Assembly: GCA_965205505.1 (NCBI GenBank)
Contig: CBDBHB010000007.1
Coordinates: 256,001-320,000, forward strand
From: Acidobacteriota bacterium
GTDB taxonomy: Bacteria; Acidobacteriota; UBA890; WLXD01
DNA: 64,000 nucleotides
Direction of reading: 5' to 3'
Each line of letters starts with the position of its first letter. Positions within the stretch are counted from its first letter, which is position 1. Shown here piece after piece: positions 32,675-62,612 of the stretch. A model generated the notes under the pieces. The model worked only from the letters and a program-made list of their open reading frames with translations, had not been told where the DNA came from and ran no database searches. The position numbers were made by a program, and so were the translations under genes.

Positions 32675-32786
32675 CAGGACCCGAAGGCCAGGGACGTCTG
32701 AGGGCCGGACTCGTCGCGGGGCCGCGGTGTATGGTGTGGTGCCGATTCAGATTTCAATCAGACCCCAAACTCCAGGAGGCCGCTCC

Positions 32787-33242: not shown

Positions 33243-33700
33243 AGCTCGATAACCGCGCGACTACGTTGTTGATATCGCTGGCCACAATCTCCACTCTCGC
33301 CTGCGGCCCGACGGCAGAGCCGGCGGCCCCCGACCCGGAGCCCACACCGACCGCTGGCGATGACCGCGCCGCCATCGACGCGCTGATGGACCGCCTCGAG
33401 GCTGCCTACGCGAAGACCGACATCGACGAGCTGATGGATGTCTACACCGACGACCTCGTTTATATGGGTGCCGGTGCGCCGCTGGTGCAGGGCGCTGCGG
33501 ACTTTCGCGCCGCCAACGACCCGGTGGGCGCCTACGACCTCGTAATGCACAACGACGAGGTGATGGTGACCGGAGACTGGGGCTACGCCCGCGGTACCTA
33601 CGATGGCAACGATCGGTACGTGATGATCGTACGCCGCGGCGATGACGGCGTGTGGAGGATCGCGAGAGAGATCTGGAACGTGGCCCCGGACGAGGAGTAA
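33239..33700 (+). CDS. NTF2/SnoaL-like (DUF4440) lipoprotein, tandem paralog
   Basis: GTG start overlapping the upstream TGA; LAC lipobox; YTDD, GDWGY, DGVWRIAREIWN. Confidence 0.75.
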   Translation: MKLDNRATTLLISLATISTLACGPTAEPAAPDPEPTPTAGDDRAAIDALMDRLEAAYAKTDIDELMDVYTDDLVYMGAGAPLVQGAADFRAANDPVGAYDLVMHNDEVMVTGDWGYARGTYDGNDRYVMIVRRGDDGVWRIAREIWNVAPDEE

Positions 33701-33791
33701 GTACCGCTACGTGGACCACTTCGACCCTGGGTTGCGGACTCGTCACCGGCAGCATGAAGTCAGCTTCCTGAATCGCGCGGTGTGATCGAAG

Positions 33792-45119: not shown

Positions 45120-47819
45120 CTACTCCGACCGCATCGCCACCAGCGGATCCACCCGCGTGGCCCGCCGTGCCGGCAGATAGCTCGCCACCAGCCCGGTCGC
45201 CGTCAGGATGACCACGATGCCGCCGAACACGACCGGGTCGAGCGGCTGCACGTCGTACAGCACGAACGACAGCAAGCGCCCCAATCCGGCCGCCAGCAGG
45301 AGCCCAATGACGGTTCCCGTCACCAGCTGCCGCAATCCCTGGCGCATCACCAGGCACACCACATCGCCGGGTGCCGCCCCCAGGGCGACGCGAAGGCCTA
45401 CCTCGTGGGTTCGCTGGCTGACCGAGAACGCCAGTACGCCATAGAGCCCGACGGTGGCAAGGAACAGTGCGGCGGCGCCGAAGATGGTGAACATGACGCC
45501 GAAGATGCGCAGAAATTGCTGGGTGTTGTTGATCGCCACCCGGAGCGTCGACACCCCCGAGATCGGCAGATCGGGGTCGATGGCGGTCACCGCTTTGCGC
45601 ACAGCATCGGTCAGCTCCAGCGGATCACCGATGCTACGCACCATCACGCTTGCTGCGGAGGCTGGCCGTTGGGCAAACGGCGTATAGATCGCCTCCACGC
45701 CGAGAATGAAAAGCTGGGCGTCGAGGTACAGATCGGGCACCACCCCGACGATCGTGTACCAGATGTCATCGTCGCGCTCGGTCTGGCCCGTGGTGAGTAC
45801 CCCTCGTATCGACACCCGCCGCTCGATGGCCGACTCGTTTGCAAAGTGTGTCGCGACGAAGGCCTGGTTCACGATTGCCACCGGCATCCCGTCGGCGTTA
45901 TCGGCCATGGTGAACGCACGACCCTCCAGGACGGGCGCTTCGAGGCTCGCGAAGTAGTCGGGGTCGACGGAGCCGATCCGGGCGCTTGGATAGTCACGAT
46001 CGGCCTGATACGTCTGCCCTTCGATCGCATAGCGCCCGTTGTCGAAGCCAACGACCGGAAGGTCGGTGGCGATCGATGCGGCCTCGGCACCTGGAATGGC
46101 GTGCAAGCGACTACCTAGCTCCTCGAAGAACTGCCGCTGCGTGATCGCGTCGGGGTAGCCCGACGGCGGCCGCGCCACCTGCGCTGTAAGCAAGCCATCG
46201 ACCTCGAACGGGTAGTCGATGCTGGACAAGTTGGTGACGCTGCGCACCATCAGCCCGGCCGCCACCAGCAAAGCGCAGCAGAACGCCACCTCCACCACGA
46301 CAAGAGCTCGGCTGAGCCTGCCGATGCGAAGGCTCGATCCACCGCGGGTGACGTCTTTGAGCACATCGCTCAGATCGGCGCCCGACGCCTGCACGGCCGG
46401 CAATAGCCCGGACAATAGGCTGGCGGCACCGGTCAAACCGACGACGAACAGCAGCACATCGGGATCGATGCTGATGTCGAACCAGAAGGGTAGGCTCCCA
46501 GGTAGTGCCGTCAGCGCACGGTTGAACAGGTCGATCCCCAGTTTGCCGAGCCCGATACCTACCAGCGCTCCGAGGCTGGCAATCATCGCCGCTTCCATCA
46601 GCAGCTGACCGAACACGCGTGCCCGGCTCGCACCGAGCGCGCTGCAAACGGCGACCTCCTTGCTGCGTAAGCTGGCGCGCGCCAGCAAGAGGTTGGCGAC
46701 GTTGGCGCAGGCAATGACGAGCACCAGCGCCACCGCACCGAGCATGGTGAAGAGAAATTGCGGTATCTGGTATCCGATGATCTCGCGCACGTACAGGCCG
46801 ATGATCATCGTCATTCCCTCGTTGGTCTCCGGGTACTCCTCGCCGAGACCACCCATGATGCGCTCGAGATCGCCCTGCGCCTGGACCATCGTCACCCCGT
46901 CCGCCAAGCGCCCAACCATCAAGAGGCTGGGGCCGTCGCTGCGCCCGAGGGCGTCGATGTCGACCTGCAGCGGCAGCCAGAGTTGCTGGTTGAACGGGAA
47001 CTCGAATCCCTCGGGCATCACCCCGATCACCGTCGTCTGGGCGCCGTTCACCCGCAACGTGCTGCCCACCACGTCGGACGCCCCGCTCAGCCGGTCCTGC
47101 CAGAATCGGTACCCGACAACCACTACCGGCGGCCCCCCGGGTGCCTCCTCGTCGAGCGAGAACGTTCGCCCGCGCGCCGGGGTTGTTCCCAGCAACGTAA
47201 ACATGTTGGCGGTCACCGAGGCGGCGTTGAGAAACTCCGGGTCTTGCCCCGGCGGACTGACATTGGCTGGCACGCTCTCCATGCCGGCGAGGTACTCGAA
47301 GGTCGTCTGTCTCTCGACCAGGTCGCGATAGTCGTGGATACGTCCGATCAGGCGACTCGGACCCTCAGACAGATTCACGCGGTTGAGCGCCACGACCTCG
47401 TGCGGCTCGTCGAACGGCAACCCCTTGAGCATGACGCCGTTGATGATGCTGAACATCGCGGTGGTCAGGCCGATTCCCAATCCCATGGCAAGGACCGCGA
47501 TCATGGCGAGCCCCGGCTTGTGAACCAGCCGGCGGAAGACGGTACGCAGGTCGGCGACGAGGTTGCTCATGGCGGGTGTTTCCTCGGAGGGGGAAAGGAC
47601 CCGCGACCGGCGAGGCGGTCCATACGTCAACCAGACACGGGGTAGTGCGAAGGCCAGGTCACGAAACAACACGCTCGCCAGTCGGCCGGGGCGGCGGCCG
47701 TCGCGGTACAGCTCGTCACGCCGTGACTGCATGGCGGCCAGCACTTCGTCGCCGTAGCGACGGCGGAAGCGGCGTGGATACAGCGCCAGGAGGATGCCGA
47801 AGAGAAGCGGTGACTGCAT
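45120..47819 (-). CDS. ADOP-type ABC permease
   Basis: LYPRRFRRRYGDE leader; VIACANVANLLLARA, GLYGVLAFSVSQRTHE, RRATRVDPL. Confidence 0.92.
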   Translation of the reverse strand: MQSPLLFGILLALYPRRFRRRYGDEVLAAMQSRRDELYRDGRRPGRLASVLFRDLAFALPRVWLTYGPPRRSRVLSPSEETPAMSNLVADLRTVFRRLVHKPGLAMIAVLAMGLGIGLTTAMFSIINGVMLKGLPFDEPHEVVALNRVNLSEGPSRLIGRIHDYRDLVERQTTFEYLAGMESVPANVSPPGQDPEFLNAASVTANMFTLLGTTPARGRTFSLDEEAPGGPPVVVVGYRFWQDRLSGASDVVGSTLRVNGAQTTVIGVMPEGFEFPFNQQLWLPLQVDIDALGRSDGPSLLMVGRLADGVTMVQAQGDLERIMGGLGEEYPETNEGMTMIIGLYVREIIGYQIPQFLFTMLGAVALVLVIACANVANLLLARASLRSKEVAVCSALGASRARVFGQLLMEAAMIASLGALVGIGLGKLGIDLFNRALTALPGSLPFWFDISIDPDVLLFVVGLTGAASLLSGLLPAVQASGADLSDVLKDVTRGGSSLRIGRLSRALVVVEVAFCCALLVAAGLMVRSVTNLSSIDYPFEVDGLLTAQVARPPSGYPDAITQRQFFEELGSRLHAIPGAEAASIATDLPVVGFDNGRYAIEGQTYQADRDYPSARIGSVDPDYFASLEAPVLEGRAFTMADNADGMPVAIVNQAFVATHFANESAIERRVSIRGVLTTGQTERDDDIWYTIVGVVPDLYLDAQLFILGVEAIYTPFAQRPASAASVMVRSIGDPLELTDAVRKAVTAIDPDLPISGVSTLRVAINNTQQFLRIFGVMFTIFGAAALFLATVGLYGVLAFSVSQRTHEVGLRVALGAAPGDVVCLVMRQGLRQLVTGTVIGLLLAAGLGRLLSFVLYDVQPLDPVVFGGIVVILTATGLVASYLPARRATRVDPLVAMRSE

Positions 47820-47834: not shown

Positions 47835-48173
47835 CTAGAGGACTCGCTTGGCGCGAGCGAAGCTCAGCACCTTGGACAGCGTCTCGGTCTCGCGGCGGAG
47901 CGTGGTGCGGCCGAGATCGGTCAGTCGATAGTAGCGGCGCCGGCCGTGGGCTCTCTCGGCGGGGCGGCGGGATTCCTCGATCAAACCGGCGTCGGCGAGG
48001 CGTCCCAACGACCAGTAAAGCGACCCGGGCCCGAGATCGATGCTGCCCTCGGAGCGCTCGGCCACCTCCTTGGCCATCGCGTAGCCATGACCCTCGCCGT
48101 CGACGAGGGTCAGCAGCAGGAAGAAAAAGGCGGGCGTGATGCGGATTGAGGTCTCAGGGCCGGTGGGGCTCAT
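47835..48173 (-). CDS. PadR family transcriptional regulator
   Basis: HGYAM, GPGSLYWSLGRL, RRRYYRLT. Confidence 0.9.
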   Translation of the reverse strand: MSPTGPETSIRITPAFFFLLLTLVDGEGHGYAMAKEVAERSEGSIDLGPGSLYWSLGRLADAGLIEESRRPAERAHGRRRYYRLTDLGRTTLRRETETLSKVLSFARAKRVL

Positions 48174-48925: not shown

Positions 48926-49909
48926 TCAGAGCCAGCCGTGCTGCCGATACCAGTCCGCAGTGTCTTCGAACCCATGAGCCGCGTCGATTCGCGCCACGTG
49001 ACCCACGGCGCGCTCGATCTTCGCCACCTCGCAGACAAGTCCGGGAGCACCGAGCTCGCGCAGGCGATCGCGGTTTAGCAGCGCCGGCCGTCCGGTGAGT
49101 CGGCCACTGAGCTCACCGGCCTCGGCGAGGGCGTACAACAGCCACCGTGGCACCGGAACCACGCGTACACGACGGTCGTAGGCCTCCGAGAGCAACCGGG
49201 CGAAGTCGACTTGCCGGACCGGCTCCGAGTGACCGACGAAGAAAGTCTCGCCCATGACGACGTCGTTCTCGGCGGCCCCCGTCTCGCCTACCGCCCGCAG
49301 ACCAGCGACGAGGTCGGCGACGTGGATCAGCGTGTAGGCTCTCTCCGCATCGCCGAGCACTGGACACAGGCCGCGCTTGCCGCCGCGGAACAGAGCGAGG
49401 AAGTCGCGGTCTCGTGGACCATAAACGCCCGGCGGTCGGATAATCGCATGTCGCAAGCCTTCGATCTTCTGCACCGCAAGCTCGCCGGCGCGCTTGCTCT
49501 TTCCGTACATGCTCAGCGGCGCGGGCTCGTGTTTCTCAGTGCGCGGCTGCTCGGGGGTGCCTGCGCCGGCGGCGGCCTGACTGGACACGAGCACGAAGAA
49601 AGCACCGGCGCGGCGCGCCGCGAGCGCCGCCTGGCGGGCGCCCTCGTCGTTGACTCGAGCGAACGACACGTAGTCGATGGCGCGCGTCAGCCCGGCCAGG
49701 TGGTAGACAATCGCGGCGCCCTCACAGGCAGCTGTCATGGCGCCCTGGTCGAGCTCGCAATCGACTCGCTGTACGCGGTCCGGAAGGGCGTTGGGACTCG
49801 ACGGGCGCACCACGGCGCGCACTTCCCAACCGGAGTCACGCAGGCTCTCGCCCAGGTTCCACCCGATGAACCCGGTGCCGCCGGTTATGACAGCGATGCT
49901 AGCAGGCAT
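48926..49909 (-). CDS. NAD-dependent epimerase/dehydratase (ceramide reductase CerR-like)
   Basis: ITGGTGFIG, YGKSK, RPPGVYGPRD; context with spt and bcerS-like genes. Confidence 0.8.
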   Translation of the reverse strand: MPASIAVITGGTGFIGWNLGESLRDSGWEVRAVVRPSSPNALPDRVQRVDCELDQGAMTAACEGAAIVYHLAGLTRAIDYVSFARVNDEGARQAALAARRAGAFFVLVSSQAAAGAGTPEQPRTEKHEPAPLSMYGKSKRAGELAVQKIEGLRHAIIRPPGVYGPRDRDFLALFRGGKRGLCPVLGDAERAYTLIHVADLVAGLRAVGETGAAENDVVMGETFFVGHSEPVRQVDFARLLSEAYDRRVRVVPVPRWLLYALAEAGELSGRLTGRPALLNRDRLRELGAPGLVCEVAKIERAVGHVARIDAAHGFEDTADWYRQHGWL

Positions 49910-49977
49910 CAGATTCCTCGACGGGTGCGGCAAGAGCGCCGCCCAGAATCAACGTAACAACCAGCAGGTGGCCGAAC

Positions 49978-51117
49978 CTACAAGCGCTTTTGGTACAGTC
50001 GATAGGTCTTGGAATGCTGGCCGCCGACCAGCCGGATCGCCTTGTTGATGCCGTCGTTGTCTTCCAGGGTCCACCCGCACTCCCCGCCGACCCAGCCAAG
50101 CCTCTCGACGACGCGGATCGAGTGCGCGATCAGGGCGAGCTCGAGGCCCTTTTGGCGATGTTCGGCCACCACTCCCAGAAGCATCAGCCGGCATCGGTCG
50201 ATGATGCTGCTCTTGCGCAGCAGGTGCAAGAAACCGAACGGAAACAGGCGGCCGCGCATGCGCTTGAATACCTGGTTTATGTCCGGAACCGTGAGGCAAA
50301 ACGCGATCGGCTCACCCTCGAGCTCCATGATGAGCGCCAGCTCGAAGTTGAGGATCATCTTCATGTCCTTGGCGGTATGCAGAAACTCCTCCTCGGTGGG
50401 CGCCACGAAACCCCAGTTGTCCACCCAGGCGTCGGAGAAGATACGCAGTATGGTCAGCGCGTCCTTCTCGAAATTCCGCTTGCTCAACTGGCGGATCGTC
50501 GGCTTGGGGTCGAGGCGAGTCTCGATGCGCCGCAGGATCCGCTGGGCGCGCCGGTTGACGCTGGTGTCCATATCGAACCACCAGGTCCAAAGATCCTTCG
50601 CTTTTTCGTAGCCGGCCGCCTCCACCCAACCTGGATAGGTCGCCGGGTTGTGGGTCGTCTGAATGAGCGGATCGAGATCGAAAGGTCCGACTAGCATGCC
50701 CGCCGTATCGTTCAACGAAGGGTTGGCGGGACCACGCAGAGCATCACGACCGCGCTTTCGAGCCCACTCCTCGGCGGCCTCTAGGAGTACACCGGCCACC
50801 TCGGCGTCTTCGGCCTCGAAGAAGCCGAAGAAGCCCAGGTTGTCACCATGCGTCTCGTTGTGCCGGTCGTCGTCGATAGCGGCGATCCGTCCCACCAGCT
50901 TGCCGCCCCGCCACGCCAGATAAAGCTCGATCTCGGCGTGCTGGAAGAACGGGTTCTTGGCGGTATCGAGCAGCTCTCGCTCGGCGAGGATCAGTGGCGG
51001 AACCCAGTTCGGGTCGTCGGCGTACAGGCGGAACGGCAGCTTGATGAACACGTCGCGCTCACGCTTGCTCGTCGCCCGACGAATCGATACCCCGGGTACG
51101 CAAACGGCCTCGGTCAT
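49978..51117 (-). CDS. GNAT-fold acyltransferase (bacterial ceramide synthase bCerS-like)
   Basis: FIKLPFRLYADDPNWVPPL, GRIAAI, GFFGFFE, RGPANPSLND, NWGF, WTLEDN. Confidence 0.8.
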   Translation of the reverse strand: MTEAVCVPGVSIRRATSKRERDVFIKLPFRLYADDPNWVPPLILAERELLDTAKNPFFQHAEIELYLAWRGGKLVGRIAAIDDDRHNETHGDNLGFFGFFEAEDAEVAGVLLEAAEEWARKRGRDALRGPANPSLNDTAGMLVGPFDLDPLIQTTHNPATYPGWVEAAGYEKAKDLWTWWFDMDTSVNRRAQRILRRIETRLDPKPTIRQLSKRNFEKDALTILRIFSDAWVDNWGFVAPTEEEFLHTAKDMKMILNFELALIMELEGEPIAFCLTVPDINQVFKRMRGRLFPFGFLHLLRKSSIIDRCRLMLLGVVAEHRQKGLELALIAHSIRVVERLGWVGGECGWTLEDNDGINKAIRLVGGQHSKTYRLYQKRL

Positions 51118-51177
51118 GCGTAGGTCGAGCCTATCAGGCCGTGGTGGAAGTGTGGCGGGCCTGGTTACGGCGAGTTG

Positions 51178-52410
51178 CTAGGCAGCCGTACTGATCACGC
51201 CGTGCCGGCGACCGGCGTCGGCGAAGGCGCTCAGCACGCGCTCGATCTCCTCGCGCTTGTGGCTAGCGTTGACCGCCATTCGGATGAGCGCCTCGCCCTC
51301 AGGGACGGCAGGCGGCAACGCCGGCAAAGCGAAGATCCCAGCGTCCCAGACGTCTTTCCACATCGCCATGGCCAGATCGACATCGCCGATCGACACGGGC
51401 ACGATCGGGCCTTCGGAGCCCAAGGTATTGAACCCCAGCCCGCGCAGCCCCTTACGGAACATCATGACGCGCTTCCACAGCCGCTCGCGATGCTCCGGCT
51501 CGCTGGCCAGAATCTCCAGTGCCTTGTGGGTGGTCGCCACTTGGGCCGGAGGCAAAGCTGCGGTGAATACGAACGGCCGCGCCAGGCACTTGATGTAGTC
51601 GACGATCTGGGCGTTGCCGCCGACGAAGCCGCCCACCGAAGCGAACGCTTTCGAGAAAGTGCCGATGACCAGGTCGACCTCGTCCTCGAGGCCGAAGTGG
51701 TTCGCCGTGCCCCGACCATTAGGACCCAGGACACCGGTCGAGTGCGCATCGTCAACGAGAACTCGAGCACCGTAGCGGCGGGCCAGCGCGACGACGCCGG
51801 GCAGATCGGCGATCTCGCCGCTCATCGAGAACACACCGTCCGTGACGATGAGCTTTCCGGCATCGCGATTGGCATCGCGCTTCAGTAGCGACTCCAGATG
51901 ATCCATGTCGCCGTGACGATACTTACGCAGCTCGCCGTAGGAGAGCCGCGCTCCGTCATACAGGCTGGCGTGGTTCTCGCGGTCGAAGTACATGATGTCG
52001 CGACGGCCGACGACAGCGGCCAGAACGCCGAGCGAGCCCAGGAACCCGGTGCTGAATGTCAGCACCGACTCCTTCTTCAGAAACTCCGCCAGGTCTCGCT
52101 CTAAGTTCTCGTGGATGCCCAGCGTGCCGTTGAGGAAGCGTGAGCCCGTGCAGCTCGTTCCGAACTCGCGCAACGCCGGCAAGCCGGCGCTCTGCACGCG
52201 CTCGTCCTGGCTGAGGCCGAGGTAGTCGTTGGAGCAGACCATGATCATCGGCTTGCCGTCGACCGTAACTTCGTTGCCATTCTGGGCCCGAAGCGCCTTG
52301 AAGTACGGGAAGAGCCCCATCTCGCGCAGCTCGTTGGCGCGCGCGTAGTACTTGGAGCTTGTCTTGTCGAAGATGTCCACCTTCATGGCGGTGATTTCGG
52401 CTTGAGCCAT
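51178..52410 (-). CDS. spt: PLP alpha-oxoamine synthase, probable serine palmitoyltransferase
   Basis: GLFPYF, SNDYLGL, GTSCTGSRFLNGT, DDAH, GTFSK; adjacent to bCerS/CerR-like genes. Confidence 0.75.
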   Translation of the reverse strand: MAQAEITAMKVDIFDKTSSKYYARANELREMGLFPYFKALRAQNGNEVTVDGKPMIMVCSNDYLGLSQDERVQSAGLPALREFGTSCTGSRFLNGTLGIHENLERDLAEFLKKESVLTFSTGFLGSLGVLAAVVGRRDIMYFDRENHASLYDGARLSYGELRKYRHGDMDHLESLLKRDANRDAGKLIVTDGVFSMSGEIADLPGVVALARRYGARVLVDDAHSTGVLGPNGRGTANHFGLEDEVDLVIGTFSKAFASVGGFVGGNAQIVDYIKCLARPFVFTAALPPAQVATTHKALEILASEPEHRERLWKRVMMFRKGLRGLGFNTLGSEGPIVPVSIGDVDLAMAMWKDVWDAGIFALPALPPAVPEGEALIRMAVNASHKREEIERVLSAFADAGRRHGVISTAA

Positions 52411-52525
52411 TTCAGTCTCGCTCGCTCGAGGAGAGCGTCGACAGCCGGGGCAAAACGCGCTTCGCGCCGGGCATGCCTTCAGATCCTGGCCTGGTAGACA
52501 ACGTCGGGGTGGCGGGAACGCGGAA

Positions 52526-53140
52526 TCAGGAGTCCGTGTGGTACTCCTCGATCCGGTCCCGCAGCCGCCGAATAACGTCGTCGACGGTTTCGGTCTTCAG
52601 CAGGCGGATAAAGCGGCGGTTCCAACTACGAGCGGTGTCAACGTCGTCGACGACGTAGTTGACGATCAGCCACCGGTCGTCGCGCAGCATGAGCTCGTAG
52701 TCGAGGGCAATGTCTTCGCCCTCGAAGTAGGCCAGGGTGTTGACCACCGCTTGCTCGCCGTCGATCTCCTCGTTCAGGTAGTCGAAGCGGTCCGCTCGGT
52801 AGCGGCCCACCCCCTTTATGGAACGAATGCGTAGCAAATCACCGAAGACGGTCTTCCACTCACCGCACTTCTCGCCGCTCAGCTCGTGCTCTGCACAGAT
52901 CTGATCGATCGCGCCGGTCGACATCGTTACGAAGTCGGTGACGTCGTTCATGATCTGGTAGACACGTGCCTCCCCCTCGGCATCGAGAGGGTCATGCTCG
53001 TCGAGAATGGCGGAAATCGCCTCGTTCGACGCGCGGACCGTCTCCATCGGGGTCGTGATGTTCTCCGCGGCCTGGCCAACCGCTATCACGCCCAGAAAGA
53101 GCACCGACGCCACGAGGCTAGTCGAGGACGACTTGGCCAT
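52526..53140 (-). CDS. MlaC/Ttg2D-like periplasmic lipid shuttle
   Basis: Signal peptide; TDFVTMS, LDYEL...WLIVNYVVDDV...RRF; size typical of the family. Confidence 0.75.
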   Translation of the reverse strand: MAKSSSTSLVASVLFLGVIAVGQAAENITTPMETVRASNEAISAILDEHDPLDAEGEARVYQIMNDVTDFVTMSTGAIDQICAEHELSGEKCGEWKTVFGDLLRIRSIKGVGRYRADRFDYLNEEIDGEQAVVNTLAYFEGEDIALDYELMLRDDRWLIVNYVVDDVDTARSWNRRFIRLLKTETVDDVIRRLRDRIEEYHTDS

Positions 53141-54542
53141 CAGCAATCCACTGTAGGTATGAAGAAAGGTCCCCGATAACAAAGGCCAACTCGGCCAAGG
53201 AGACCATCAACTCATATTCTCTCTTAACGACTTCCTGCTGTAAACGATAGTCTGCGCGGTATGCCTTGATGAGGGGCTGCGCCTCACCGATCCCCAGATC
53301 GAAGTCGTCGCCCGCAGACCGTAGCCAGCGACGCGTTTCCCGCCGCGTCTCACGGGCCGCGTCATGCAAAACAACGTTCTTCAGCACGGCTTCGAGGGCA
53401 CGCGCGACGTCGAGCTCGACACTCATTCGCAACGCTTGTCGGCGCGCCAGCGTGGCGTCGCGCTCGATTCTCCGACGGGCAACATCCAGGCTGTGGCGGG
53501 CAAAGTTCAGGTCCCAGCGCACATTCACCGCAGCTCCGACGCGTGTGAAGTTGAACTCGTCGTAGGCAAACGGATTTTTCTGATCGTCGCGCGCCGACGA
53601 GCGCGCGTAGCCGAACCCGCCACCGATCAGGATGAACGGCCAGCGATTGCTCTGGCTCAGCCCAATGGCCTCGTCGAGCGCGCCGGCGGTAGCGGCAAGG
53701 GCGCGGAGCTGCGGATTACGCTCCATGGCCGCCGCCTGCAGGGCCGGCAGCGCGGCGCGGGCAAGAGCCACCTGCGGCATCCCATCGTCCCTGAGCTCAA
53801 AGGCATTGCTGCTGTCAAAGCCCATCAGCTTGCCGAGCGCCTCGCGCAGCAGCCGCTCGGTCTGACTTGCCTCCAGGTAGACCGCTTCGACGTCGTACTT
53901 GCCGGCGCGGATTTCCCAGACATCGTTGGGGTCGATATCGCCTGTGTCGAGCTTTTGGTCGGCCTGCTCGACAAGCTCGTCGTAGGAACTGCGCATGTCG
54001 TCCGCGATACCGAAGGCGCGGCCGGCTGACAGCGCCCCCCAATAGGTTCGGATGACCTCCCTCGACAGCTCGTCGCGGGCCCGCTGGCTCTCCGATGCCT
54101 TGGCCTCCACCACTCCACGCGCTGCCGCCGTTCCATGTCGCTGTCGCCCGAATCCGTACACCGGAATGGCAAACCCGATCTGGCCTCTGAAGAACGGGCC
54201 GAGGTCGTTCAGGTCGCTGGATGTATCGGGGGAATTGAAGATGTCGCCGCGCGCACCGGGAACCACACCCGAGTAGCTGTCCAGCTGTACTTCCGGCAGC
54301 GACCAGAAGCTCTGCCATTGGTCGAGGTCAACTTCGGCGCGAGCCACGTCCAGTCGGTAAGCTCGCATCAGCGGGTTGGAGTCCACCACCCTCGCCAGCA
54401 CGGCAGCAAGACCGAGACGCACGGTGGTACCCGCGGCTGGCTGCGTCTCCTGTCCGCTGGCGGTCGCAGCCCCCAGCAGCGTGGTCACCAACAACAGGCT
54501 GGCGGCCGGGGACAGCTGGCGCCCGTGGGGCTCGGCGCGCAT
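53118..54542 (-). CDS. TolC family outer-membrane protein
   Basis: Signal peptide, NPxL helical repeats, two OEP-like halves. Confidence 0.75.
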   Translation of the reverse strand: MRAEPHGRQLSPAASLLLVTTLLGAATASGQETQPAAGTTVRLGLAAVLARVVDSNPLMRAYRLDVARAEVDLDQWQSFWSLPEVQLDSYSGVVPGARGDIFNSPDTSSDLNDLGPFFRGQIGFAIPVYGFGRQRHGTAAARGVVEAKASESQRARDELSREVIRTYWGALSAGRAFGIADDMRSSYDELVEQADQKLDTGDIDPNDVWEIRAGKYDVEAVYLEASQTERLLREALGKLMGFDSSNAFELRDDGMPQVALARAALPALQAAAMERNPQLRALAATAGALDEAIGLSQSNRWPFILIGGGFGYARSSARDDQKNPFAYDEFNFTRVGAAVNVRWDLNFARHSLDVARRRIERDATLARRQALRMSVELDVARALEAVLKNVVLHDAARETRRETRRWLRSAGDDFDLGIGEAQPLIKAYRADYRLQQEVVKREYELMVSLAELAFVIGDLSSYLQWIADGQVVLD

Positions 54543-54828
54543 GGAGTCTCCTGTACGGATCTGGCTAGAGGATCAGTTCATGGTTAAGCGTAGCATCGCG
54601 CCGCGCAGCAGCAGAGTTCGGCAGCTTCGGCAGCTTGCCACCTCGCGTGTGCCACACGCCGTGGCACGAGCCGGGGCTTGACGCATGCGAACCCTTCCTA
54701 GAGCCTTGAAAGATGAGCCGCGCATTTCCGGCGCGATCGACCCCCGTCACGGCCGTTAGCGGGCATCGCCTGTCTGCCGCTTGCGCTGTCGGCTGGTCGT
54801 ACGACAAGCCTGCCCAACCCATGCGCCC

Positions 54829-57270
54829 GTGACCGACAAGCTGCAAATCCAGCGTCGCACCGCTCGCGAGAGCACGATCTTCTACCGGGGGATCATCGCG
54901 GTCTGCCGCTGGTCGCATCGGTTGGCTTTCCTGTGGGTCGGGCTGACCGTGCTGCTCACTGTTCCGGCGTTCATGCGCGCGCGCACTCTCGGCCTCGACT
55001 CCGACCTGACGCGGCTCCTGCCACAGGACAGCCCGGCGGTGCAGTGGAGTCGTGACTTGGAGCCACTGGTCGGCGACGGCGGGTACTTCAGCCTCATCTT
55101 CGAGCACGGCGACCCCGAATCGCTACAAACGGCAGTCGATCAAACGGTGGCGCGATTGCAATTGCTCGAAGAGATCACCGATATCAACCACCGCTATCCG
55201 ACCGAGTTTGTCGAGCGCTACCGCTATGGGCTCGTGCCTTCCGATCAGCTCGAGACGGCCATCGAGACGATCGAGGACTGGGAAGCAGAGGTAAACCCGT
55301 TCCTCGACGATCTCGACGATTCGGCAAGCGAGGAGGAATCCGACCTCGAGCGCATCGTGCGGCTGTACAGCGAGCTGCCCGAGTACCACCGTGACGCCGA
55401 CGACACGATGTACGGAGTGATCCTGAGGACCAGCGAAGGTCTGACCGACCTGACGGGGTTGCGAAACCTTTACCAGCGCATAGATGGAATCGCCGGCGAG
55501 GCGGCGGAGGCCGCTGGGGTGGTCGTCTCCATCGGCGGCTCGCTGCGCACGCGGGTGGAGGAGTTCGACGTCATCATTTCCGACGTCACCCGAACTGGCG
55601 CGGTAGCGGCAGCGGCTATTCTGTTGATGCTGGCGATCAGCTTCCGGTCGGTGCGCGTGCTGCCGGTGCTGCTGTATCCGATCGCGGCCGGCTTGATATG
55701 GGCGTTCGCCTTCGTGCCCGATCTGGTCGGCGATCTCAACACCATCACCTCGTTCCTGCTGATGGTGTTGTTCGGCATGGGGGTCGACTATTCCATTCAC
55801 CTGGTGAAGCGCTTCCGACACGAAATCCTCAGCCAGACACCCGAGGTCGCGCTCGCCGAGACATTCACCTCTACCGGACGCTCGGTCTTCACCTCGGGGC
55901 TTACGACGTCGTTCGGGCTGTTCATCCTGGCGGTATCGGACTTCCGAGGCTTCTCGGACTTCGGGCTGATCGGCGGTACGGCGATCCTGGTGGTGACCGC
56001 GTGCATGCTGTTGGTCATGCCGGCAACGTTGAGCGCCGGTCATCGACTCGGGCTGGTTACGCCGAGCGCCCCCCGCTATCCGAGTGCTCGGCTCGCAATC
56101 CCTCCAAGCTGGTCGGCAGCTTTGCTGAGCACGCTGGTGATCGTCTCGGCCTATGCCTCGGCGTTCCTGCTCGAGTTCGACTACGACTTCGCCAACTTCA
56201 GCGCCAACCTCGAGGAGCTCGACGCGATCCGCGACAAACAGGAAGAGGTGTACCCGATCTTCTTCGGGCCCTCGGCGATCTACGTCGCACAGGACCTCGA
56301 GGCGCTCGACGAGATGCTGGCGTTGATCGCCAGCGCCGCGGCGGAACCGGGGTCGGTGATCGGGCGAGTCGCGAGCGTGCGTGACTTCGCCCCCGATGAG
56401 GCCGAGGTGCAGTTGCGACGCGACTCCTTGGAGCTGATCCAGGAGATGCTCGCTCGGCGATGGGTACGCCGCGTCGAGGACCCGGAACGCATCCGTGTCA
56501 TCGAGGATGTGCTCGGCTTCGAGATGCCAGACCGCTTGCCGCAGGTCGACGACCTGCCGGACTCGGTGCTGCAAGACATGGTCACGCTGGACGGCTCCGG
56601 CGCCTACATCCTGGGACTGCACGCCACCGGTCCGGGTAAGGACGGCATCATCACAATGCGTTTCACGCGCGAGCTCTACGACCTGGAGATGCCCGACGGC
56701 ATCCTCGGTCCGACGGGCGACAAGCCGGTACTGGCTGAGATTCTCTGGCTGGTTACGCGCGAGGGACCTCTCATCGTCGTCCTGACGTTCCTCGGGGTGT
56801 TCATTCTGGTGGTCATCGACCGTCGCGACGTGAACCAGGCGGCCTGGGTGCTGGTACCACTGGTGGCCAGCCTGCTTTTGACCTTCGGCGCCGTGATCGC
56901 TCTCGGATGGCGGGTGAACTTCTTCAATATGGTCGTGCTGCCAACGCTGCTCGGTCTCGGAGTGGATCACGGAGTGCACTACTACCGCCGCTGGCGAGAG
57001 CTCGAAGGCGATACGGCCGCAACTCAACTGGAGCTCTTCGAGCCGATCACCGTAGCAACGTTGACGACAATCATGGGGTACGCCGGGATGGCTTTCGCAC
57101 ATCATCCCGGGTTGCGCTCGATCGGCCTGCTGGCGGTCGTCGGGTTGCTGTGCACCTGGTTAACAGCTGTGGTGTTGCTGCCCGGCTTGCTCGTCTGGCA
57201 TCGCGACATAAGCAACGGCACCAAAGGCGAGGGGGCCCTCGCCGACGCCGACGTGCCTCTCGACGCCTAG
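54829..57270 (+). CDS. MMPL/RND family lipid transporter
   Basis: Two halves with GMGVDYSIHL and GLGVDHGVH; start approximate; its TAG lies in the mini-MITE. Confidence 0.87.
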   Translation: MTDKLQIQRRTARESTIFYRGIIAVCRWSHRLAFLWVGLTVLLTVPAFMRARTLGLDSDLTRLLPQDSPAVQWSRDLEPLVGDGGYFSLIFEHGDPESLQTAVDQTVARLQLLEEITDINHRYPTEFVERYRYGLVPSDQLETAIETIEDWEAEVNPFLDDLDDSASEEESDLERIVRLYSELPEYHRDADDTMYGVILRTSEGLTDLTGLRNLYQRIDGIAGEAAEAAGVVVSIGGSLRTRVEEFDVIISDVTRTGAVAAAAILLMLAISFRSVRVLPVLLYPIAAGLIWAFAFVPDLVGDLNTITSFLLMVLFGMGVDYSIHLVKRFRHEILSQTPEVALAETFTSTGRSVFTSGLTTSFGLFILAVSDFRGFSDFGLIGGTAILVVTACMLLVMPATLSAGHRLGLVTPSAPRYPSARLAIPPSWSAALLSTLVIVSAYASAFLLEFDYDFANFSANLEELDAIRDKQEEVYPIFFGPSAIYVAQDLEALDEMLALIASAAAEPGSVIGRVASVRDFAPDEAEVQLRRDSLELIQEMLARRWVRRVEDPERIRVIEDVLGFEMPDRLPQVDDLPDSVLQDMVTLDGSGAYILGLHATGPGKDGIITMRFTRELYDLEMPDGILGPTGDKPVLAEILWLVTREGPLIVVLTFLGVFILVVIDRRDVNQAAWVLVPLVASLLLTFGAVIALGWRVNFFNMVVLPTLLGLGVDHGVHYYRRWRELEGDTAATQLELFEPITVATLTTIMGYAGMAFAHHPGLRSIGLLAVVGLLCTWLTAVVLLPGLLVWHRDISNGTKGEGALADADVPLDA

Positions 57271-57436: not shown

Positions 57437-57511
57437 TGGGGCGTCGTCCAATTGGCAAGACATACGGCTCTGGACCGTAGAATCGGGGTTCGAGTCCCTG
57501 CGCCCCAACCA
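57437..57511 (+). tRNA. tRNA-Gln (anticodon CTG)
   Basis: Acceptor TGGGGCG/CGCCCCA, anticodon stem TACGG/CCGTA with loop CT-CTG-GA, GGTTCGAGTCC T-arm, encoded CCA. Confidence 0.95.
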
Positions 57512-57661: not shown

Positions 57662-60652
57662 ATGATCGGTAGTCGCTGGCAACCACGATTCGCGGTCCTC
57701 ACGCTGGTCATTGCCGTCGTCGCACCGGCCATGGCGCAGGATGGCACGGAGCTCGATGCGCGCTACGGCGCCGAGATTCGTGCCCACACCACCGACGAGA
57801 AGTTCCTCACGCCCATCGTCGAAGTGCTGCCGGCCTCGAGCACCGTCCCCACGCCGCTCGACTTCCACGGTTACATCGCCGGAGCCGAGGGACACCTCAC
57901 CTACGCCGCCGACGTGCACTCGTACATGCGAGCCGTCGCCGATGCGTCGCCACGCGTACAGGTCTTTCGCATGGGAGAGACCGAGGAGGGCCGCGAGCGC
58001 GTTCTCGTAGTCGCCGGCAGCGACGAGTCGATGGCCAACCTCGATCGCTATCGCGAGATCACTGGTCGCCTCGCCGATCCCCGCCACCTGACCGACGAAG
58101 AGGCGGCCGAGCTGATCGGCCGCGGCAAGGCGATCTACTGGGCGACCGGCGGGCTTCACTCGCCTGAGACCGGCTCACCGGAGATGCTCATGGAGCTGAT
58201 CTATCGTTTCGCGGTAGACGAGCGACCCATCTTCGACGAGATTCGCGACAACTTGATCTTCATGGCCACCCCGGTCGTCGAGGTGGACGGTCGCGAGCGC
58301 ATGATCGACATCATGCGCTATCGGGCCGCCAACCCAGGCAAGGCCGCACCGAACCTCGTGTACTGGGGCAAGTACATCGCCCACGACAACAACCGCGACG
58401 GCATCGGGCTGGCGCTGACCCTCTCTCGGCAGGCCATCGACACGTACCTGCAGTGGCACCCACAGGTGATGCACGACCTGCACGAGTCGGTGCCGTTTCT
58501 CTACATCATGAGTGGCCACGGCCCGTTCAACTCCTGGCTCGACCCCATTACCACCGAGGAGTGGGTGGAGATGGCGTGGACCGAGGTGCGGAAAATGAAC
58601 GAGTGGAACGTGCCTGGTGTCTGGACGTTCAACTTCTTCGATGGCTGGGCCGCCAACTACATGATCTACGCGGCCATGGGGCGGAACTCGGTGGGCCGCT
58701 TCTACGAGACGTTCGGCAATAGCGTTCCGGAAACGCAAATGCGTGAGATCGGCGGCCGGTCGCAACGTGCCTGGTACCGCATGAACCCACCCACCCCCAA
58801 GGTGCTGTGGTCGCTGCGCAACAACACCAACCTGATGCAAAGCGCGCTCGTCGTCGGGCTGCACAACGTGGCGACGAACAAGAATCGCTTTCTGGAAACG
58901 TTCTATCGGAAGGGCAAGCGCGCGGTCGAAAAGCCACAGCGCGAGGGCCCCGCAGCCTGGGTGATTCCCGCCGACGGCCCACGCCCGCGGCTCACACGGC
59001 GTCTTATCGACCTGCTGCGAGCACAGACCATCGAGCTCCACGTCGCTGCCGAGGCGTTCGAGATCGAAGCCTCGCGCCAGCCCGACGACAGCGAGACGGT
59101 GCAGTTCGCCGCCGCCGACATCATCGTGCGCATGGATCAGCCCTACAGCCGGCTCGCCGACATGCTGCTCGACTACCAGTACTACAACCCCAGCGACCCC
59201 CGACCCTATGACGACACCGGCTGGTCGCTCGGCCCGCTTTTCAACGTCGACACCTACCGCGTGAAGGACATCGCGGTGCTCGATGTCAGCATGACGGCGC
59301 TCGACGACGCCGCTCCGGAGGGCGGAATCTCCGGTGACGGGTCGACCCTCGTGCTTGCAGCCACCGGCGAGCCCGAGGTGGCGAGCTTCCGCTTCGCCCT
59401 TGCCGACCTGCAGATGAGCGCCGCCGAGGACGAGTTCACCATCGGCGAGGCGACCTATCCGGCGGGCAGCATGCTGATCGACGGCAGCGACCCGGAAGTG
59501 CGACGGCGGGCGGCCACCGCGGCATCCGAGCTCGGCTTGCTACTGAGCGCCGTCTCCTCGACGCCGGAGGTCGTGGCGCACGACATGCCGGTACCGCGGA
59601 TCGGCCTGGTCCACACCTGGATCAACACTCAGAGCGAAGGCTGGTGGCGGTATGCATTCGACGACGCCGGCGTTCCTTATGAGTACATCTCGACCGACGC
59701 CATCGGCGAAACCGACAATCTGAACGAGCGCTGGGACGTGCTCGTCATGGCCCCGGGTTGGGGCAACGTCGACCGCCTAGTGCAGGGAGCTCGCAGCAAT
59801 CAGCCGATCGCCTGGAAGTCTACCGAGACGACACCCAACCTGGGCCGCATTGACTCCACCGACGATATGAGCGCGGGCATCGGATTCGACGGCGTGGCCA
59901 AGATCCAGCGCTTCGTCGAGCACGGCGGCGTCATCATTGCAGCCACCAGCTCCGTCGGATTCCTGACGCAGACCGGCATCGCGCCCTACGTGCGGATAGA
60001 TGACACCCCCTCCGACATGAAGGCTCGCGGCGCCCTGTTCAGCGCCAAGATCACCGACGAGCTCAGCCCCATCGCCTACGGTTACGATGAGAACATGGCG
60101 GTGTACTTCAGCAACGCTCCGTTGCTGCGCGTGAACGCCGCGCCCAGCGGCTTCGGCGGTGGCGGGGGCAACGGAGACGAGCGCGCTTCCGGCCGGCGGG
60201 GCGAGGACGCGGTTCCAGGTCATTCGCCATACGTAGACCCGGAAGGTGAGGCGGATGATCCGCAAGGTGAGGCGGCCGATCCGGAAGGCGAGGCGGACGA
60301 GGCGGAAGGCGAGGCGGATGATGAAGATGCCGACGAGGAGCTCTACTTCGACGACGGCCAGGATCTCAGTGATCGCATGCGCCTGCTGGCGGGCCATCTG
60401 GTTCCGGCGCCCGATCACGTTCCCCGTGTCGTGATGCGCTTCCATGATTCCAGCAGCGAGCTGCTGATCTCGGGATTGCTCGGCAACGGGGGCGCGCTGG
60501 CGTCGCGACCGGCGATCATCGACGTCCCGGTGGGCGACGGCCATGCGGTCTTGTTTGCCATCAACCCGATGTGGCGTAATCAAACCCACGGGCAGTACGG
60601 ATTGGTACTCAACACGCTGTTACACTTCGCGGCTCTCGACGCCGGGAGATAA
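57662..60652 (+). CDS. M14 family zinc carboxypeptidase-like secreted protein
   Basis: GETEEGR, GLHSPE, HDNNRD, HDLHE. Confidence 0.87.
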   Translation: MIGSRWQPRFAVLTLVIAVVAPAMAQDGTELDARYGAEIRAHTTDEKFLTPIVEVLPASSTVPTPLDFHGYIAGAEGHLTYAADVHSYMRAVADASPRVQVFRMGETEEGRERVLVVAGSDESMANLDRYREITGRLADPRHLTDEEAAELIGRGKAIYWATGGLHSPETGSPEMLMELIYRFAVDERPIFDEIRDNLIFMATPVVEVDGRERMIDIMRYRAANPGKAAPNLVYWGKYIAHDNNRDGIGLALTLSRQAIDTYLQWHPQVMHDLHESVPFLYIMSGHGPFNSWLDPITTEEWVEMAWTEVRKMNEWNVPGVWTFNFFDGWAANYMIYAAMGRNSVGRFYETFGNSVPETQMREIGGRSQRAWYRMNPPTPKVLWSLRNNTNLMQSALVVGLHNVATNKNRFLETFYRKGKRAVEKPQREGPAAWVIPADGPRPRLTRRLIDLLRAQTIELHVAAEAFEIEASRQPDDSETVQFAAADIIVRMDQPYSRLADMLLDYQYYNPSDPRPYDDTGWSLGPLFNVDTYRVKDIAVLDVSMTALDDAAPEGGISGDGSTLVLAATGEPEVASFRFALADLQMSAAEDEFTIGEATYPAGSMLIDGSDPEVRRRAATAASELGLLLSAVSSTPEVVAHDMPVPRIGLVHTWINTQSEGWWRYAFDDAGVPYEYISTDAIGETDNLNERWDVLVMAPGWGNVDRLVQGARSNQPIAWKSTETTPNLGRIDSTDDMSAGIGFDGVAKIQRFVEHGGVIIAATSSVGFLTQTGIAPYVRIDDTPSDMKARGALFSAKITDELSPIAYGYDENMAVYFSNAPLLRVNAAPSGFGGGGGNGDERASGRRGEDAVPGHSPYVDPEGEADDPQGEAADPEGEADEAEGEADDEDADEELYFDDGQDLSDRMRLLAGHLVPAPDHVPRVVMRFHDSSSELLISGLLGNGGALASRPAIIDVPVGDGHAVLFAINPMWRNQTHGQYGLVLNTLLHFAALDAGR
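60239..60322 (+). repeat. Four imperfect 21-bp coding tandem repeats (PEGEADD-like)
   Basis: CCGGAAGGTGAGGCGGATGAT and three variants. Confidence 0.85.
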
Positions 60653-61018: not shown

Positions 61019-61858
61019 ATGCACCGTTTCGTCGCAATTGCCGCACTCGTCGTCATCGCCACCGGCGGTAGCGGTATCGGTGTGGGCGAGTTGGCGGCCG
61101 CCGGGACGCTAGCCTCCGACGACGATCTGTACGCGCCGTGGGCGCGGGTGCTCGCCGGCTATGTCGACGATGAGGGGCTGGTGGACTATGCCGGACTGAA
61201 GGCCGCCGGGTTCGCTGATCTCGAGGCGTTCATGACAGCGATCGCCGCCGTCGACCCGACCTCGTTCACCAACGACACGGAGCGTATGGCGTTCTGGATC
61301 AATGCCTACAACGCCGTGGTGATCTGGGGGGTCGTGGAACGCTACCCGCTCGAGAGCGTGCGCGATGTCGGGGCCTTGTGGGGACTGATCGGCGGCTTCT
61401 TCAAGCAGAAGTATCCGGTGGCCGGCGACCAAATGAGCCCCGACAATATCGAGCACGATACGCTTCGCGCGAAATTCGACGACGAGCGCATTCACTGGGC
61501 GCTGGTCTGCGCTGCGTTCGGCTGTCCTCGGCTGCTGAACGAACCGTATCGAGCCGAGAATCTCGACGAGATGCTCGGGCAACAGTCGTACGAGTTCCTG
61601 CGACAGCCGCGGGCACTGCAACTCGACCGCGATTCGGGCACGTTGTACCTGACGAAGTACTTCGACTGGTACGAAGGCGACTTCGAGATGGTCGCGGAAG
61701 ACGTGGTCGACTACGTGCTCCGATACGCCCCCGACGCCGACGCGGCGTATATCCGCGAGCATCGCGACACGTTACGCGTGAAGATCATGGGCTACGACTG
61801 GACGCTCAACGACCAGCCGAGCGGGCCTAGGAGTCGGCGGCCCGTGCCGCGCGACTGA
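61019..61858 (+). CDS. DUF547 domain protein
   Basis: GLVDY, AFWINAYNA, IEHDTLR, RIHWALVCAAFGCPRL, YFDWY..DF, YDWTLN. Confidence 0.9.
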   Translation: MHRFVAIAALVVIATGGSGIGVGELAAAGTLASDDDLYAPWARVLAGYVDDEGLVDYAGLKAAGFADLEAFMTAIAAVDPTSFTNDTERMAFWINAYNAVVIWGVVERYPLESVRDVGALWGLIGGFFKQKYPVAGDQMSPDNIEHDTLRAKFDDERIHWALVCAAFGCPRLLNEPYRAENLDEMLGQQSYEFLRQPRALQLDRDSGTLYLTKYFDWYEGDFEMVAEDVVDYVLRYAPDADAAYIREHRDTLRVKIMGYDWTLNDQPSGPRSRRPVPRD

Positions 61859-62612
61859 GTCTCCAGAGTTTCCGTATCGTTTGGTAGTCCGACAGCATCG
61901 CCATTTTCGCGATCCGCAGGCCGGTACGCCCGCCGCGCCAGCCGCCCTGGACGAGCAACTCACGCAGGAATGCGGCCGCCGGCACGACGCCCATCCACCA
62001 GATGGCGTTCAGCCAGTTGACGCGACGACCGGTGTCATACCAGTCTGCCGCCGCGAGGCTCGAGTAGCGTTGGCGCTTCGATTCCAGCTCATCGAAATCT
62101 GCGTATGTGTGATGGTCCAGATGGCCTGGTAGTGTGCCCAGCGGTCCATCGTTTATCAGCACCGGGTATTCGTGCACCCGCCGATCGACGTACCGGGCGC
62201 AGCCGCGACGAAACAGACGCAGGTGCACGCATTTGTACCACCCAGAGAAGCTCACGGGCTCACCGAACAGCCACGTTAGCCGTCGCAGCCGATAGCCATC
62301 GAAACGGGTTTCGTCAGCCGCAACGACCTCGCGGATACCGTCGGTCAGCTCGTCCGTGAGCCTCTCGTCGGCGTCCAGGACGAGGATCCAATCGCAGGTC
62401 GCCTGCTCGATGGCGAACTGCTTCTGGCGCCCGAAGCGGTCCAGTTTCCTTCGGTAGACCTTGTCGGTATGGCGACGGGCGATTTCACGGGTCGCGTCGG
62501 TCGATTCGTCGTCGACGACGACGATCTCGTCGCACCATGCGGCCGAGTCGAGGCATTCGGCGAGATTGTCTTCCTCGTTGCGCGTGATGACAACGAGCGA
62601 GAGGGTGGCCAT
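61827..62612 (-). CDS. Glycosyltransferase family 2 (WaaE/KdtX-like)
   Basis: ITRNEE, VVDDESTD, WILVLDADE, VHE. Confidence 0.9.
   Translation of the reverse strand: MATLSLVVITRNEEDNLAECLDSAAWCDEIVVVDDESTDATREIARRHTDKVYRRKLDRFGRQKQFAIEQATCDWILVLDADERLTDELTDGIREVVAADETRFDGYRLRRLTWLFGEPVSFSGWYKCVHLRLFRRGCARYVDRRVHEYPVLINDGPLGTLPGHLDHHTYADFDELESKRQRYSSLAAADWYDTGRRVNWLNAIWWMGVVPAAAFLRELLVQGGWRGGRTGLRIAKMAMLSDYQTIRKLWRLSRAARAADS

Follow-up and report, generated by a model that had tools for sequence, protein, structure and literature searches.

The six-gene locus

The stretch of DNA analyzed here (hereafter the window) comprises 64,000 nucleotides (nt) of a contig of an Acidobacteriota bacterium (CBDBHB010000007.1, positions 256,001 to 320,000). 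It contains a six-gene locus, at positions 48926-57270, in which candidate genes for ceramide synthesis adjoin three candidate genes for lipid transport. Five of the genes are on the minus strand and, in the order of transcription, encode an outer-membrane factor (OMF) of the TolC/OEP family (oep), a MlaC-like periplasmic protein (mlaC-like), an oxoamine synthase (spt), a GNAT-superfamily N-acyltransferase (bcerS) and an NAD-dependent SDR (cerR). The sixth gene is divergent, on the plus strand, and encodes an HpnN-like MMPL transporter. An earlier sequence-only reading of the window had described this minus-strand run with its divergent MMPL gene, and all six genes were confirmed in the order and at the coordinates that it gave. 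The features are as follows, with protein lengths in amino acids (aa) and the scores of Pfam matches in bits.

48926-49933, minus strand: cerR-like NAD-dependent SDR, ceramide reductase candidate (335 aa; Pfam Epimerase, 95 bits)
49978-51117, minus strand: bCerS-type N-acyltransferase of the GNAT superfamily (379 aa; relatives with PF00583)
51178-52410, minus strand: oxoamine synthase, Spt candidate (410 aa; Aminotran_1_2, 194 bits)
52526-53140, minus strand: MlaC-fold periplasmic lipid carrier candidate (204 aa from the ATG; PF05494, 50 bits)
53118-54542, minus strand: outer-membrane factor of the TolC/OEP family (474 aa; PF02321, 117 bits, two repeats)
54543-54828, no strand: intergenic region between oep and the divergent MMPL gene, read directly
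54829-57270, plus strand: HpnN-like MMPL/RND inner-membrane transporter (813 aa; PF03176, 104 bits)

The successive gaps between oep, mlaC-like, spt, bcerS and cerR are -23, 115, 60 and 44 nt. The open reading frame (ORF) of the mlaC-like gene opens at a TTG (53182), and its likely start is the ATG at 53140. The ORF of the MMPL gene opens at a TTG (54781), and its likely start is the GTG at 54829, which fits an 813-aa database protein of 100% identity. Chance is excluded by a wide margin for the six gene calls, and the arrangement recurs in six other genomes (L001-L006), where all six genes are found together and the protein identity ranges from 52 to 99%. The closest genome locus found in a scan with a profile of the GNAT family is labelled Acidobacteriota, and its GNAT protein is 96% identical to that of the window. 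The G+C content is even over the locus (0.62-0.66). A promoter consensus scan of the intergenic region between oep and the MMPL gene did no better than with shuffled sequences (2 sites seen, 1.1 expected), a scan for terminator-like sites was uninformative (10 seen, 4.9 expected), and the sole Rfam match was a tRNA.

Probable enzymes of ceramide synthesis

The scores of the window synthase lie below the cut-offs of the curated Spt equivalog models (439 bits against a cut-off of 640 for SerpalmtaseCFB, its best NCBIfam model, and 383 bits against 500 for the BetaP Spt model), which the Spt references in the tree described below do pass. Its best relative among solved structures is the SPT of Sphingobacterium (365 bits, with the next entry at 292 bits). 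The motifs GTFSK, which carries the PLP-lysine, and DDAHS of the window synthase align with those of the Sphingobacterium SPT (8guh); these motifs do not discriminate between family members, because they are common to all oxoamine synthases. The synthase was also placed on a tree of 23 hand-picked sequences. Built with IQ-TREE, the tree included 10 GNAT-adjacent synthases from different genomes and four Spt references that pass the NCBI cut-offs, as well as three Kbl, three BioF, two HemA and one polyketide synthase (PKS)-linked enzyme from annotated plasmids. The window synthase fell into a cerS-linked clade (support 100/99) that was sister to the four NCBIfam-verified Spt (90/88). Spt plus the PKS-linked enzyme were separated from Kbl at 100/98, and the clade of the window synthase was apart from BioF and HemA. 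The BioF part of the tree is soft, because the BioF sequences were long-branched and non-monophyletic. This phylogeny had been named beforehand as a check on the Spt assignment, and the synthase groups with Spt; a BioF or Kbl identity is ruled out by the tree.

The 379-aa protein has no Pfam or NCBIfam match of its own. It has more than 6,000 relatives, many of which contain a GNAT domain, so the sequence-only label of GNAT is right by family, with relatives carrying the PF00583 domain that the Pfam model misses in the window copy. Over its full length (380 columns), this protein is 34% identical (E 2e-67) to an N-acetyltransferase encoded beside aasR-cerR-acpR-spt on plasmid NZ_CP106839; aasR-cerR-acpR-spt is the gene set described for Caulobacter. 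It is also 49% identical to the product of a gene between spt and an oxidoreductase gene on plasmid 1 of Rubrobacter radiotolerans. The SDR is 31% identical (E 1e-28) to an epimerase-family protein of the Caulobacter-type spt cluster on the same Klebsiella plasmid. A simple hydropathy scan found no hydrophobic N-terminal segment in the SDR; the CerR of Caulobacter is reported to be periplasmic (PMC11087976).

A genome scan with the GNAT-family profile gave matches in 583 stretches, 218 of which were confirmed as relatives; the 80 best loci were retained (12 labelled Acidobacteriota, 30 Deinococcota, mostly Trueperaceae, 25 Actinomycetota, which are Rubrobacter relatives, and 13 unlabelled). 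An Spt-like gene was found anywhere in the locus in 76 of the 80 loci; in 69, which represent three phyla, it lay directly upstream and shared the strand of the bCerS-type gene. In 58 loci, an SDR gene followed within 1.2 kb downstream on that strand. The lipid-type genes accompanying this core varied with lineage. One acidobacterial group has a GINT1_N protein, an ABC exporter resembling MsbA and an acyl-AMP ligase, a second has PAP2, PMT_2 and PEP mutase, and Trueperaceae and Rubrobacter have glycosyltransferases together with a flippase-like protein. Such a pattern is what would be expected of a ceramide core with lineage-specific genes for head groups and export. Cultured organisms with the same bCerS clade in their genomes include Rubrobacter radiotolerans, R. 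taiwanensis and Truepera radiovictrix.

The view that the three enzymes represent the bacterial ceramide pathway, put forward in the sequence-only reading, is thus borne out by the placement of the synthase beside Spt, the 34% identity of the GNAT protein to a protein of a Caulobacter-type cluster and the flanking of bCerS-type genes by spt and SDR genes across three phyla. On these sequence comparisons, we regard the assignment of the locus enzymes to ceramide synthesis as strong and highly probable. By homology, Spt would condense serine with an acyl thioester, the bCerS-type protein would N-acylate the Spt product and the CerR-like SDR would reduce the 3-keto group.

The same three enzyme families are clustered in Caulobacter crescentus (PMC11087976, PMC9393093). 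Differing from Caulobacter, whose genes are spread over a larger locus, the window has a compact spt-bcerS-cerR operon, a synthase that is nearer to the Sphingobacterium/CFB type, and neither a dedicated ACP nor an acyl-ACP synthetase. The likeness to Caulobacter was judged from the proteins of the Klebsiella plasmid cluster.

Three other loci with ceramide genes were also noted. In a group-6 acidobacterial locus (L052:721-14928), the bCerS and SDR genes share one strand, and the opposite strand encodes an Spt of the BetaP type and an acyl-AMP ligase; genes for an ABC exporter resembling MsbA, a protein with a GINT1_N domain, a GT2 protein and a TonB-dependent-receptor-like protein lie nearby. 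The Klebsiella cluster is carried by the conjugative IncFIB plasmid NZ_CP106839.1 of Klebsiella michiganensis (L083:1-5188, L084:214-1923) and encodes a fatty acyl-AMP ligase, a reductase of the epimerase family, an ACP, an Spt scoring above the cut-off of the BetaP Spt model, an N-acetyltransferase of the bCerS type and a diacylglycerol kinase. Plasmid 1 (191 kb) of the cultured actinobacterium R. radiotolerans carries spt, a bCerS-type gene annotated as hypothetical and an oxidoreductase gene (L081:7908-13500); an LTA-synthase-family gene then follows, and a type I-D CRISPR-Cas set adjoins.

Candidate pump, carrier and outer-membrane factor

The hydropathy profile of the HpnN-like protein (hereafter the pump) fits 12 transmembrane (TM) segments and two periplasmic loops of about 190 aa, with the Pfam MMPL matches in two stretches. 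Of 20 aligned relatives, 19 retain Asp320 (in GVDYSIH) and all retain Asp713 (in GVDHGVH). The pump thus has the layout of the RND/MMPL superfamily (i.e., 12 TM segments, two large loops and charged residues in TM4 and TM10). By analogy with work on MmpL3, the TM4 and TM10 Asp residues would form the proton relay. HpnN is the best-scoring named NCBIfam model for the pump, and its structure is the closest of those solved (5khn, 104 bits). The scores against the HpnN models are 208 bits for TIGR03480 (cut-off 752) and 143 bits for the equivalog NF052374 (cut-off 1100); BstA is among the weaker NCBIfam matches (114 bits). The wider clade of the pump, at 37-52% identity, includes Acidobacteriota, Nitrospinota and Desulfomarina. 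Searched against plasmids with tblastn, the pump gave partial matches only (21-32% identity) and the MlaC-like protein gave none.

The MlaC-like protein (hereafter the carrier) scores 50.4 bits against PF05494, above the cut-off of 26. Its N-terminal segment is hydrophobic, and it contains two invariant cysteines. HpnM (TIGR03481) is its best-scoring named NCBIfam model, at 31 bits against a cut-off of 160. The top 12 fold matches in the PDB to its AlphaFold model (pLDDT 86.6) are all MlaC/Ttg2D, with TMq values of 0.59-0.69 and identities of 11-17%. A word-indexed search yielded 63 clusters in the carrier family, all at least 48% identical, and a full profile search of representatives yielded 49 at E <= 1e-30, 1,219 at 1e-10 and 4,209 at 1e-3.

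A sequence search of solved structures returned no match for the carrier or the OEP-family protein. Of the NCBIfam subfamily models, TolC gave the latter 39 bits (cut-off 225) and NodT 34 bits (cut-off 210). In its monomer model (pLDDT 61.6) the long helices are confident and the beta segments poor. All significant fold matches are OMF channels, with TM-scores of only about 0.33 from this low-confidence model, which for that reason lends weak support, at the level of the family only.

Look-ups in a protein atlas again gave the GNAT and MlaC families for the respective proteins. Family scans covered the window ORFs of at least 130 aa. Among these ORFs, we found no membrane-fusion (HlyD-type) adaptor, no match of the MCE/MlaD, MlaE, MlaF or MlaA type, no LptF/LptG/LptC-type protein, no MsbA-type flippase, no hopanoid synthesis gene and no HpnS/MlaA-like gene.

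Comparison with characterized systems indicates that the three transport genes (hereafter the trio) would be a variant of known lipid routes with an RND pump and a periplasmic carrier, in which the TolC-family partner, in a set with no adaptor, is unusual. The sequence-only reading had likened pump and carrier to HpnN and HpnM of hopanoid trafficking. This analogy is apt, given that HpnN is the solved structure closest to the pump and the small protein has the MlaC fold. Like the window, the HpnN-HpnM(-HpnS) system (5khn/5khs; PMC12324291) has an RND pump and a MlaC-fold periplasmic protein beside lipid-making genes. The two differ in that the neighboring pathway in the window is that of ceramide, the outer-membrane partner is a TolC-family protein instead of a MlaA-like lipoprotein and both proteins score below the model cut-offs. 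In the BstA-BstB-BstC sterol transport system of Methylococcus (PMC11713862), an MMPL-family pump and lipid binders associated with the periplasm or outer membrane are likewise encoded near lipid synthesis genes; the carriers there are PhnD-like and TRAP-type, whereas those of the window are a MlaC-fold protein and an OMF.

With the Mla system (i.e., MlaC with MlaFEDB and MlaA-OmpC/F), the carrier shares its fold and Pfam MlaC domain. It is, however, only 11-17% identical to solved MlaC, lacks MCE/MlaD, MlaE, MlaF and MlaA genes among the ORFs nearby and would have an RND pump and an OMF as partners. Tripartite RND efflux systems (AcrAB-TolC, MexAB-OprM) also encode an RND-superfamily protein together with an OMF-family protein, but no adaptor gene was found among the scanned ORFs of the window, whose pump belongs to the HpnN/MMPL and not to the AcrB type, and a soluble MlaC-fold protein takes the middle position. 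Two precedents concern sphingolipids themselves. In Caulobacter, the transport genes lptF2-lptG2-lptC2 also lie within the sphingolipid locus and presumably serve transfer out of the inner membrane and on to the surface of the cell (bioRxiv 10.64898/2026.04.12.717747); that machine is of the ABC/Lpt type, in contrast to the RND pump and soluble carrier of the window. In Myxococcus xanthus, an MMPL-family pump gene also adjoins spt, according to the same preprint. The description there names neither a MlaC-like nor an OMF partner, and the MMPL matches from Myxococcota are 24-25% identical to the pump of the window.

Relation of the transport genes to the ceramide genes

The sequence-only reading had further proposed that the trio is dedicated to sphingolipids. 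Several features of the locus are consistent with such a role. The oep-mlaC pair lies directly upstream of spt on the same strand, and the stop of oep overlaps the ATG of the mlaC-like gene by 23 nt in six of the seven genomes (the window, L001, L002, L004, L005 and L006); in L003, the motif search did not locate the gene for this check. Predicted docking of the mature carrier to the pump reached a median score of 0.51, compared with 0.01 for the best control; the three runs agreed in their contacts and the pLDDT of the partner was 81. In a benchmark whose counts hold only roughly, because custom alignments were used, 116 of 157 solved complexes and two of 215 mismatched pairs attained the docking mark; with scores of 0.60 or under, only 18 of the 157 solved complexes did so, as did both of the passing mismatches. 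To our knowledge there is no solved MlaC-RND complex, so that memory of a template seems unlikely. The docking model weakly supports a contact between carrier and pump.

We suggest that the locus may represent the fusion, in one acidobacterial lineage, of an operon for ceramide (dihydroceramide) synthesis with an envelope-trafficking module of its own, an explanation for which we hold the chances to be about even. Dedication of the trio to sphingolipid trafficking is likewise the best single reading, and a plausible one, with the arguments on its two sides roughly in balance. In this scheme, the HpnN-like pump, driven by the proton gradient, would lift the lipid from the inner membrane and hand it to the secreted MlaC-fold carrier, which would cross the periplasm with it and reach the TolC-family protein; the genes of carrier and TolC-family protein would be translationally coupled. 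The identities of the genes, the folds, the layout of the operon, its conservation and a weak docking prediction come from the analysis itself, whereas we infer which lipid is carried and in which direction, what the outer-membrane protein does and how the lipid first crosses the inner membrane.

A number of observations weigh against dedication. Docking passes in the score range of 0.51 are more often wrong than right unless the pairing was likely beforehand, and neither transport protein reaches the cut-offs of the HpnN and HpnM models. Because adaptor and flippase are both absent from the scanned ORFs, the role proposed for the TolC-family protein is without precedent. The trio adjoins ceramide genes in only six of the 80 loci (six of the 12 labelled Acidobacteriota), and a search of the 7,960 stop-to-stop ORFs in these 80 loci with profile hidden Markov models (HMMs) of the three proteins found no distant copies of the carrier or the OEP-family protein in the other 74. 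On the bCerS tree, L001-L006 and the window form one clade (one change, support 100); the linkage of the trio to spt thus counts as a single evolutionary event. A literature search, supplements aside, found no sphingolipid report for cultured Acidobacteria and no lipid data for the lineage of the window.

Gene order in this clade is also kept beyond the six genes on the side of the pump, so that plain inheritance could explain the adjacency. The conserved synteny reaches tRNA-Gln(CTG), a DUF547 gene and a GT2 gene. The tRNA gene (57437-57511, plus strand) directly follows the MMPL gene in all seven genomes. The DUF547 (61019-61858, plus strand) and GT2 (61827-62612, minus strand) proteins are 64-67% identical in L004-L006, and a DUF547 fragment is present at the end of L002. 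Between the pump gene and the DUF547/GT2 pair, a gene for a 996-aa M14-peptidase-like protein (57662-60652) is found in the window, L001, L002 and L003. On the cerR side, the gene order breaks within the clade.

Two long contigs (4,360,038 and 1,020,281 bases), finally, were among the matches to the MlaC-like and MMPL proteins and not among the 120 listed GNAT matches. These contigs may have the trio and no close bCerS, or the bCerS may lie beyond the matches listed. Contigs of matching size across the match lists (three in all three lists, several pairwise) would suggest co-location in many assemblies but are a rough proxy for it and were not relied on. The question of whether the trio is usually unlinked from spt, raised in the sequence-only reading as what would speak against it, is therefore half answered: seen from the bCerS side, most loci are without the trio. 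As a whole, the claim of dedication is backed by operon layout, the 23-nt overlap and a weak docking prediction, and is held back by the restriction to a single clade and a minority of loci, the wider synteny and the low HpnN/HpnM scores.

MMPL genes are also found beside ceramide operons of other lineages. The trio HMMs gave weak MMPL matches in seven other loci (L010, L016, L043, L049, L060, L061 and L076), six of which are labelled Trueperaceae and one of which is unlabelled. The proteins are of a different, MmpL3-like type (Pfam 242-286 bits; NCBIfam MmpL3 259 bits, below the cut-off). Their genes end a same-strand string of spt, bcerS, (an Rce1-like gene), cerR and genes for a glycosyltransferase, a flippase-like protein and a MacB/LolCE-type ABC permease and ATPase, as at L061:11106-20785 (plus strand), where the flippase-like protein passes TIGR00374. 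This string looks like a complete set for glycosphingolipid synthesis and export. The MmpL3-like gene occurs in six of 19 Deinococcota loci with at least 8 kb of downstream sequence and in one of 10 unlabelled loci, and is patchy on the bCerS tree (six changes over 44 scored rows), where some absences may reflect the ends of loci. For M. xanthus, one sentence in the Discussion of the preprint places an MmpL gene just downstream of spt and hypothesizes that it is an alternative exporter (bioRxiv 10.64898/2026.04.12.717747). Including this remark, MMPL pumps lie beside ceramide genes in three phyla. It is conceivable, though we consider it unlikely, that MMPL pumps were recruited to sphingolipid operons several times independently (in Acidobacteriota, Trueperaceae and Myxococcota), the acidobacterial form being an adaptor-free HpnN-like pump with a MlaC-fold carrier and a TolC-family acceptor that deliver a structural lipid. 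This would be a new architecture, and lipid delivery a departure from efflux, the only function known for this channel family.

Among the other explanations, the one that survives best, which we regard as somewhat unlikely, is that the trio is a general module for envelope lipids or solvents (i.e., phospholipid homeostasis or hydrophobic efflux) and lies beside the ceramide operon by inherited gene order. The single origin of the linkage, the extension of the synteny to unrelated genes and the two long contigs with MlaC-like and MMPL matches and no close GNAT among the matches listed are all compatible with it. Moreover, the MlaC-family proteins solved so far bind phospholipids according to their structure descriptions, and OMF proteins are typical parts of efflux systems. 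A general module is, however, harder to reconcile with the position of the oep-mlaC pair immediately upstream of spt, with its short gaps and conserved overlap, with the absence of MlaFEDB, MlaA and membrane-fusion genes from the scanned ORFs and with the recurrence of MMPL pumps beside ceramide operons in Trueperaceae and reportedly in Myxococcus.

Alternatively, the trio may handle the sphingolipid for a purpose other than outer-membrane assembly, either secreting a ceramide-derived product to the outside or in vesicles or working in retrograde transport or uptake. We consider this improbable. TolC-family proteins are exit ducts and not lipid insertases, the direction of transport is not given by the sequence and the Mla system, which defines the fold of the carrier, is usually described as retrograde. 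No adaptor that would join the pump to the channel is encoded in the scanned ORFs, however, and outward delivery of lipids is the role linked to HpnN-type pumps, which are the closest solved relatives (PMC12324291). That pump and carrier are true HpnN/HpnM hopanoid transporters sited here by chance is highly improbable and was rejected: HpnN and HpnM are the best named models and HpnN the closest solved structure, but the scores fall far under the cut-offs (208/752, 143/1100 and 31/160) and the scanned ORFs include neither hopanoid synthesis nor HpnS/MlaA-like genes.

Several other features of the window were observed. Two ADOP/MacB-type duplicated permeases are encoded at 18936-21554 (plus strand) and 45120-47819 (minus strand). 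The second is paired with a PadR regulator (47835-48173), which adjoins cerR; the pair is present in L001 and not in L004-L006. It is a typical feature of Acidobacteriota that probably has no relation to the ceramide genes. At 30000-34000, the G+C content is 0.56-0.59, compared with about 0.64 elsewhere, and the ORFs 31299-31919 and 32039-32674 there look like the two parts of a split X-Pro dipeptidyl-peptidase. A transposase domain of the IS110 family (Transposase_20, 63 bits) is encoded by an ORF at 24703-25470 (plus strand), which overlaps the end of an 896-aa ORF without a family match (22055-24745).

According to the preprint on Lpt paralogues, nothing was known before that work of how bacterial sphingolipids reach the cell surface. 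These paralogues are needed for it in Caulobacter, and the preprint expects other taxa to use other routes (bioRxiv 10.64898/2026.04.12.717747, April 2026). For hopanoids, HpnN-HpnM-HpnS has been proposed as a route by analogy with Mla (2025 preprint, PMC12324291), and putative sphingolipid producers have been widened to 40 phyla (Ding et al., 2024). Our literature search, again supplements aside, found no report of an MMPL/MlaC-like/OMF set beside spt. The suggestion in the sequence-only reading that the route is uncharacterized thus holds, with transport called unsolved outside Caulobacter, except that an MmpL pump adjoining spt has already been put forward for M. xanthus.

The locus provides a concrete and compact candidate for an alternative sphingolipid route, whose six genes are few enough for transfer into a laboratory host and can be tested part by part, and the second MMPL linkage, in Trueperaceae, suggests that the theme is general. 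If sphingolipid trafficking by the trio were confirmed, the HpnN/MmpL lipid pumps would gain a substrate class, the MlaC fold would gain a set of partners outside the Mla system and lipid delivery would become a possible function of the TolC family. Sphingolipid signals from soils and sediments, in which Acidobacteriota abound, would then also be easier to interpret.

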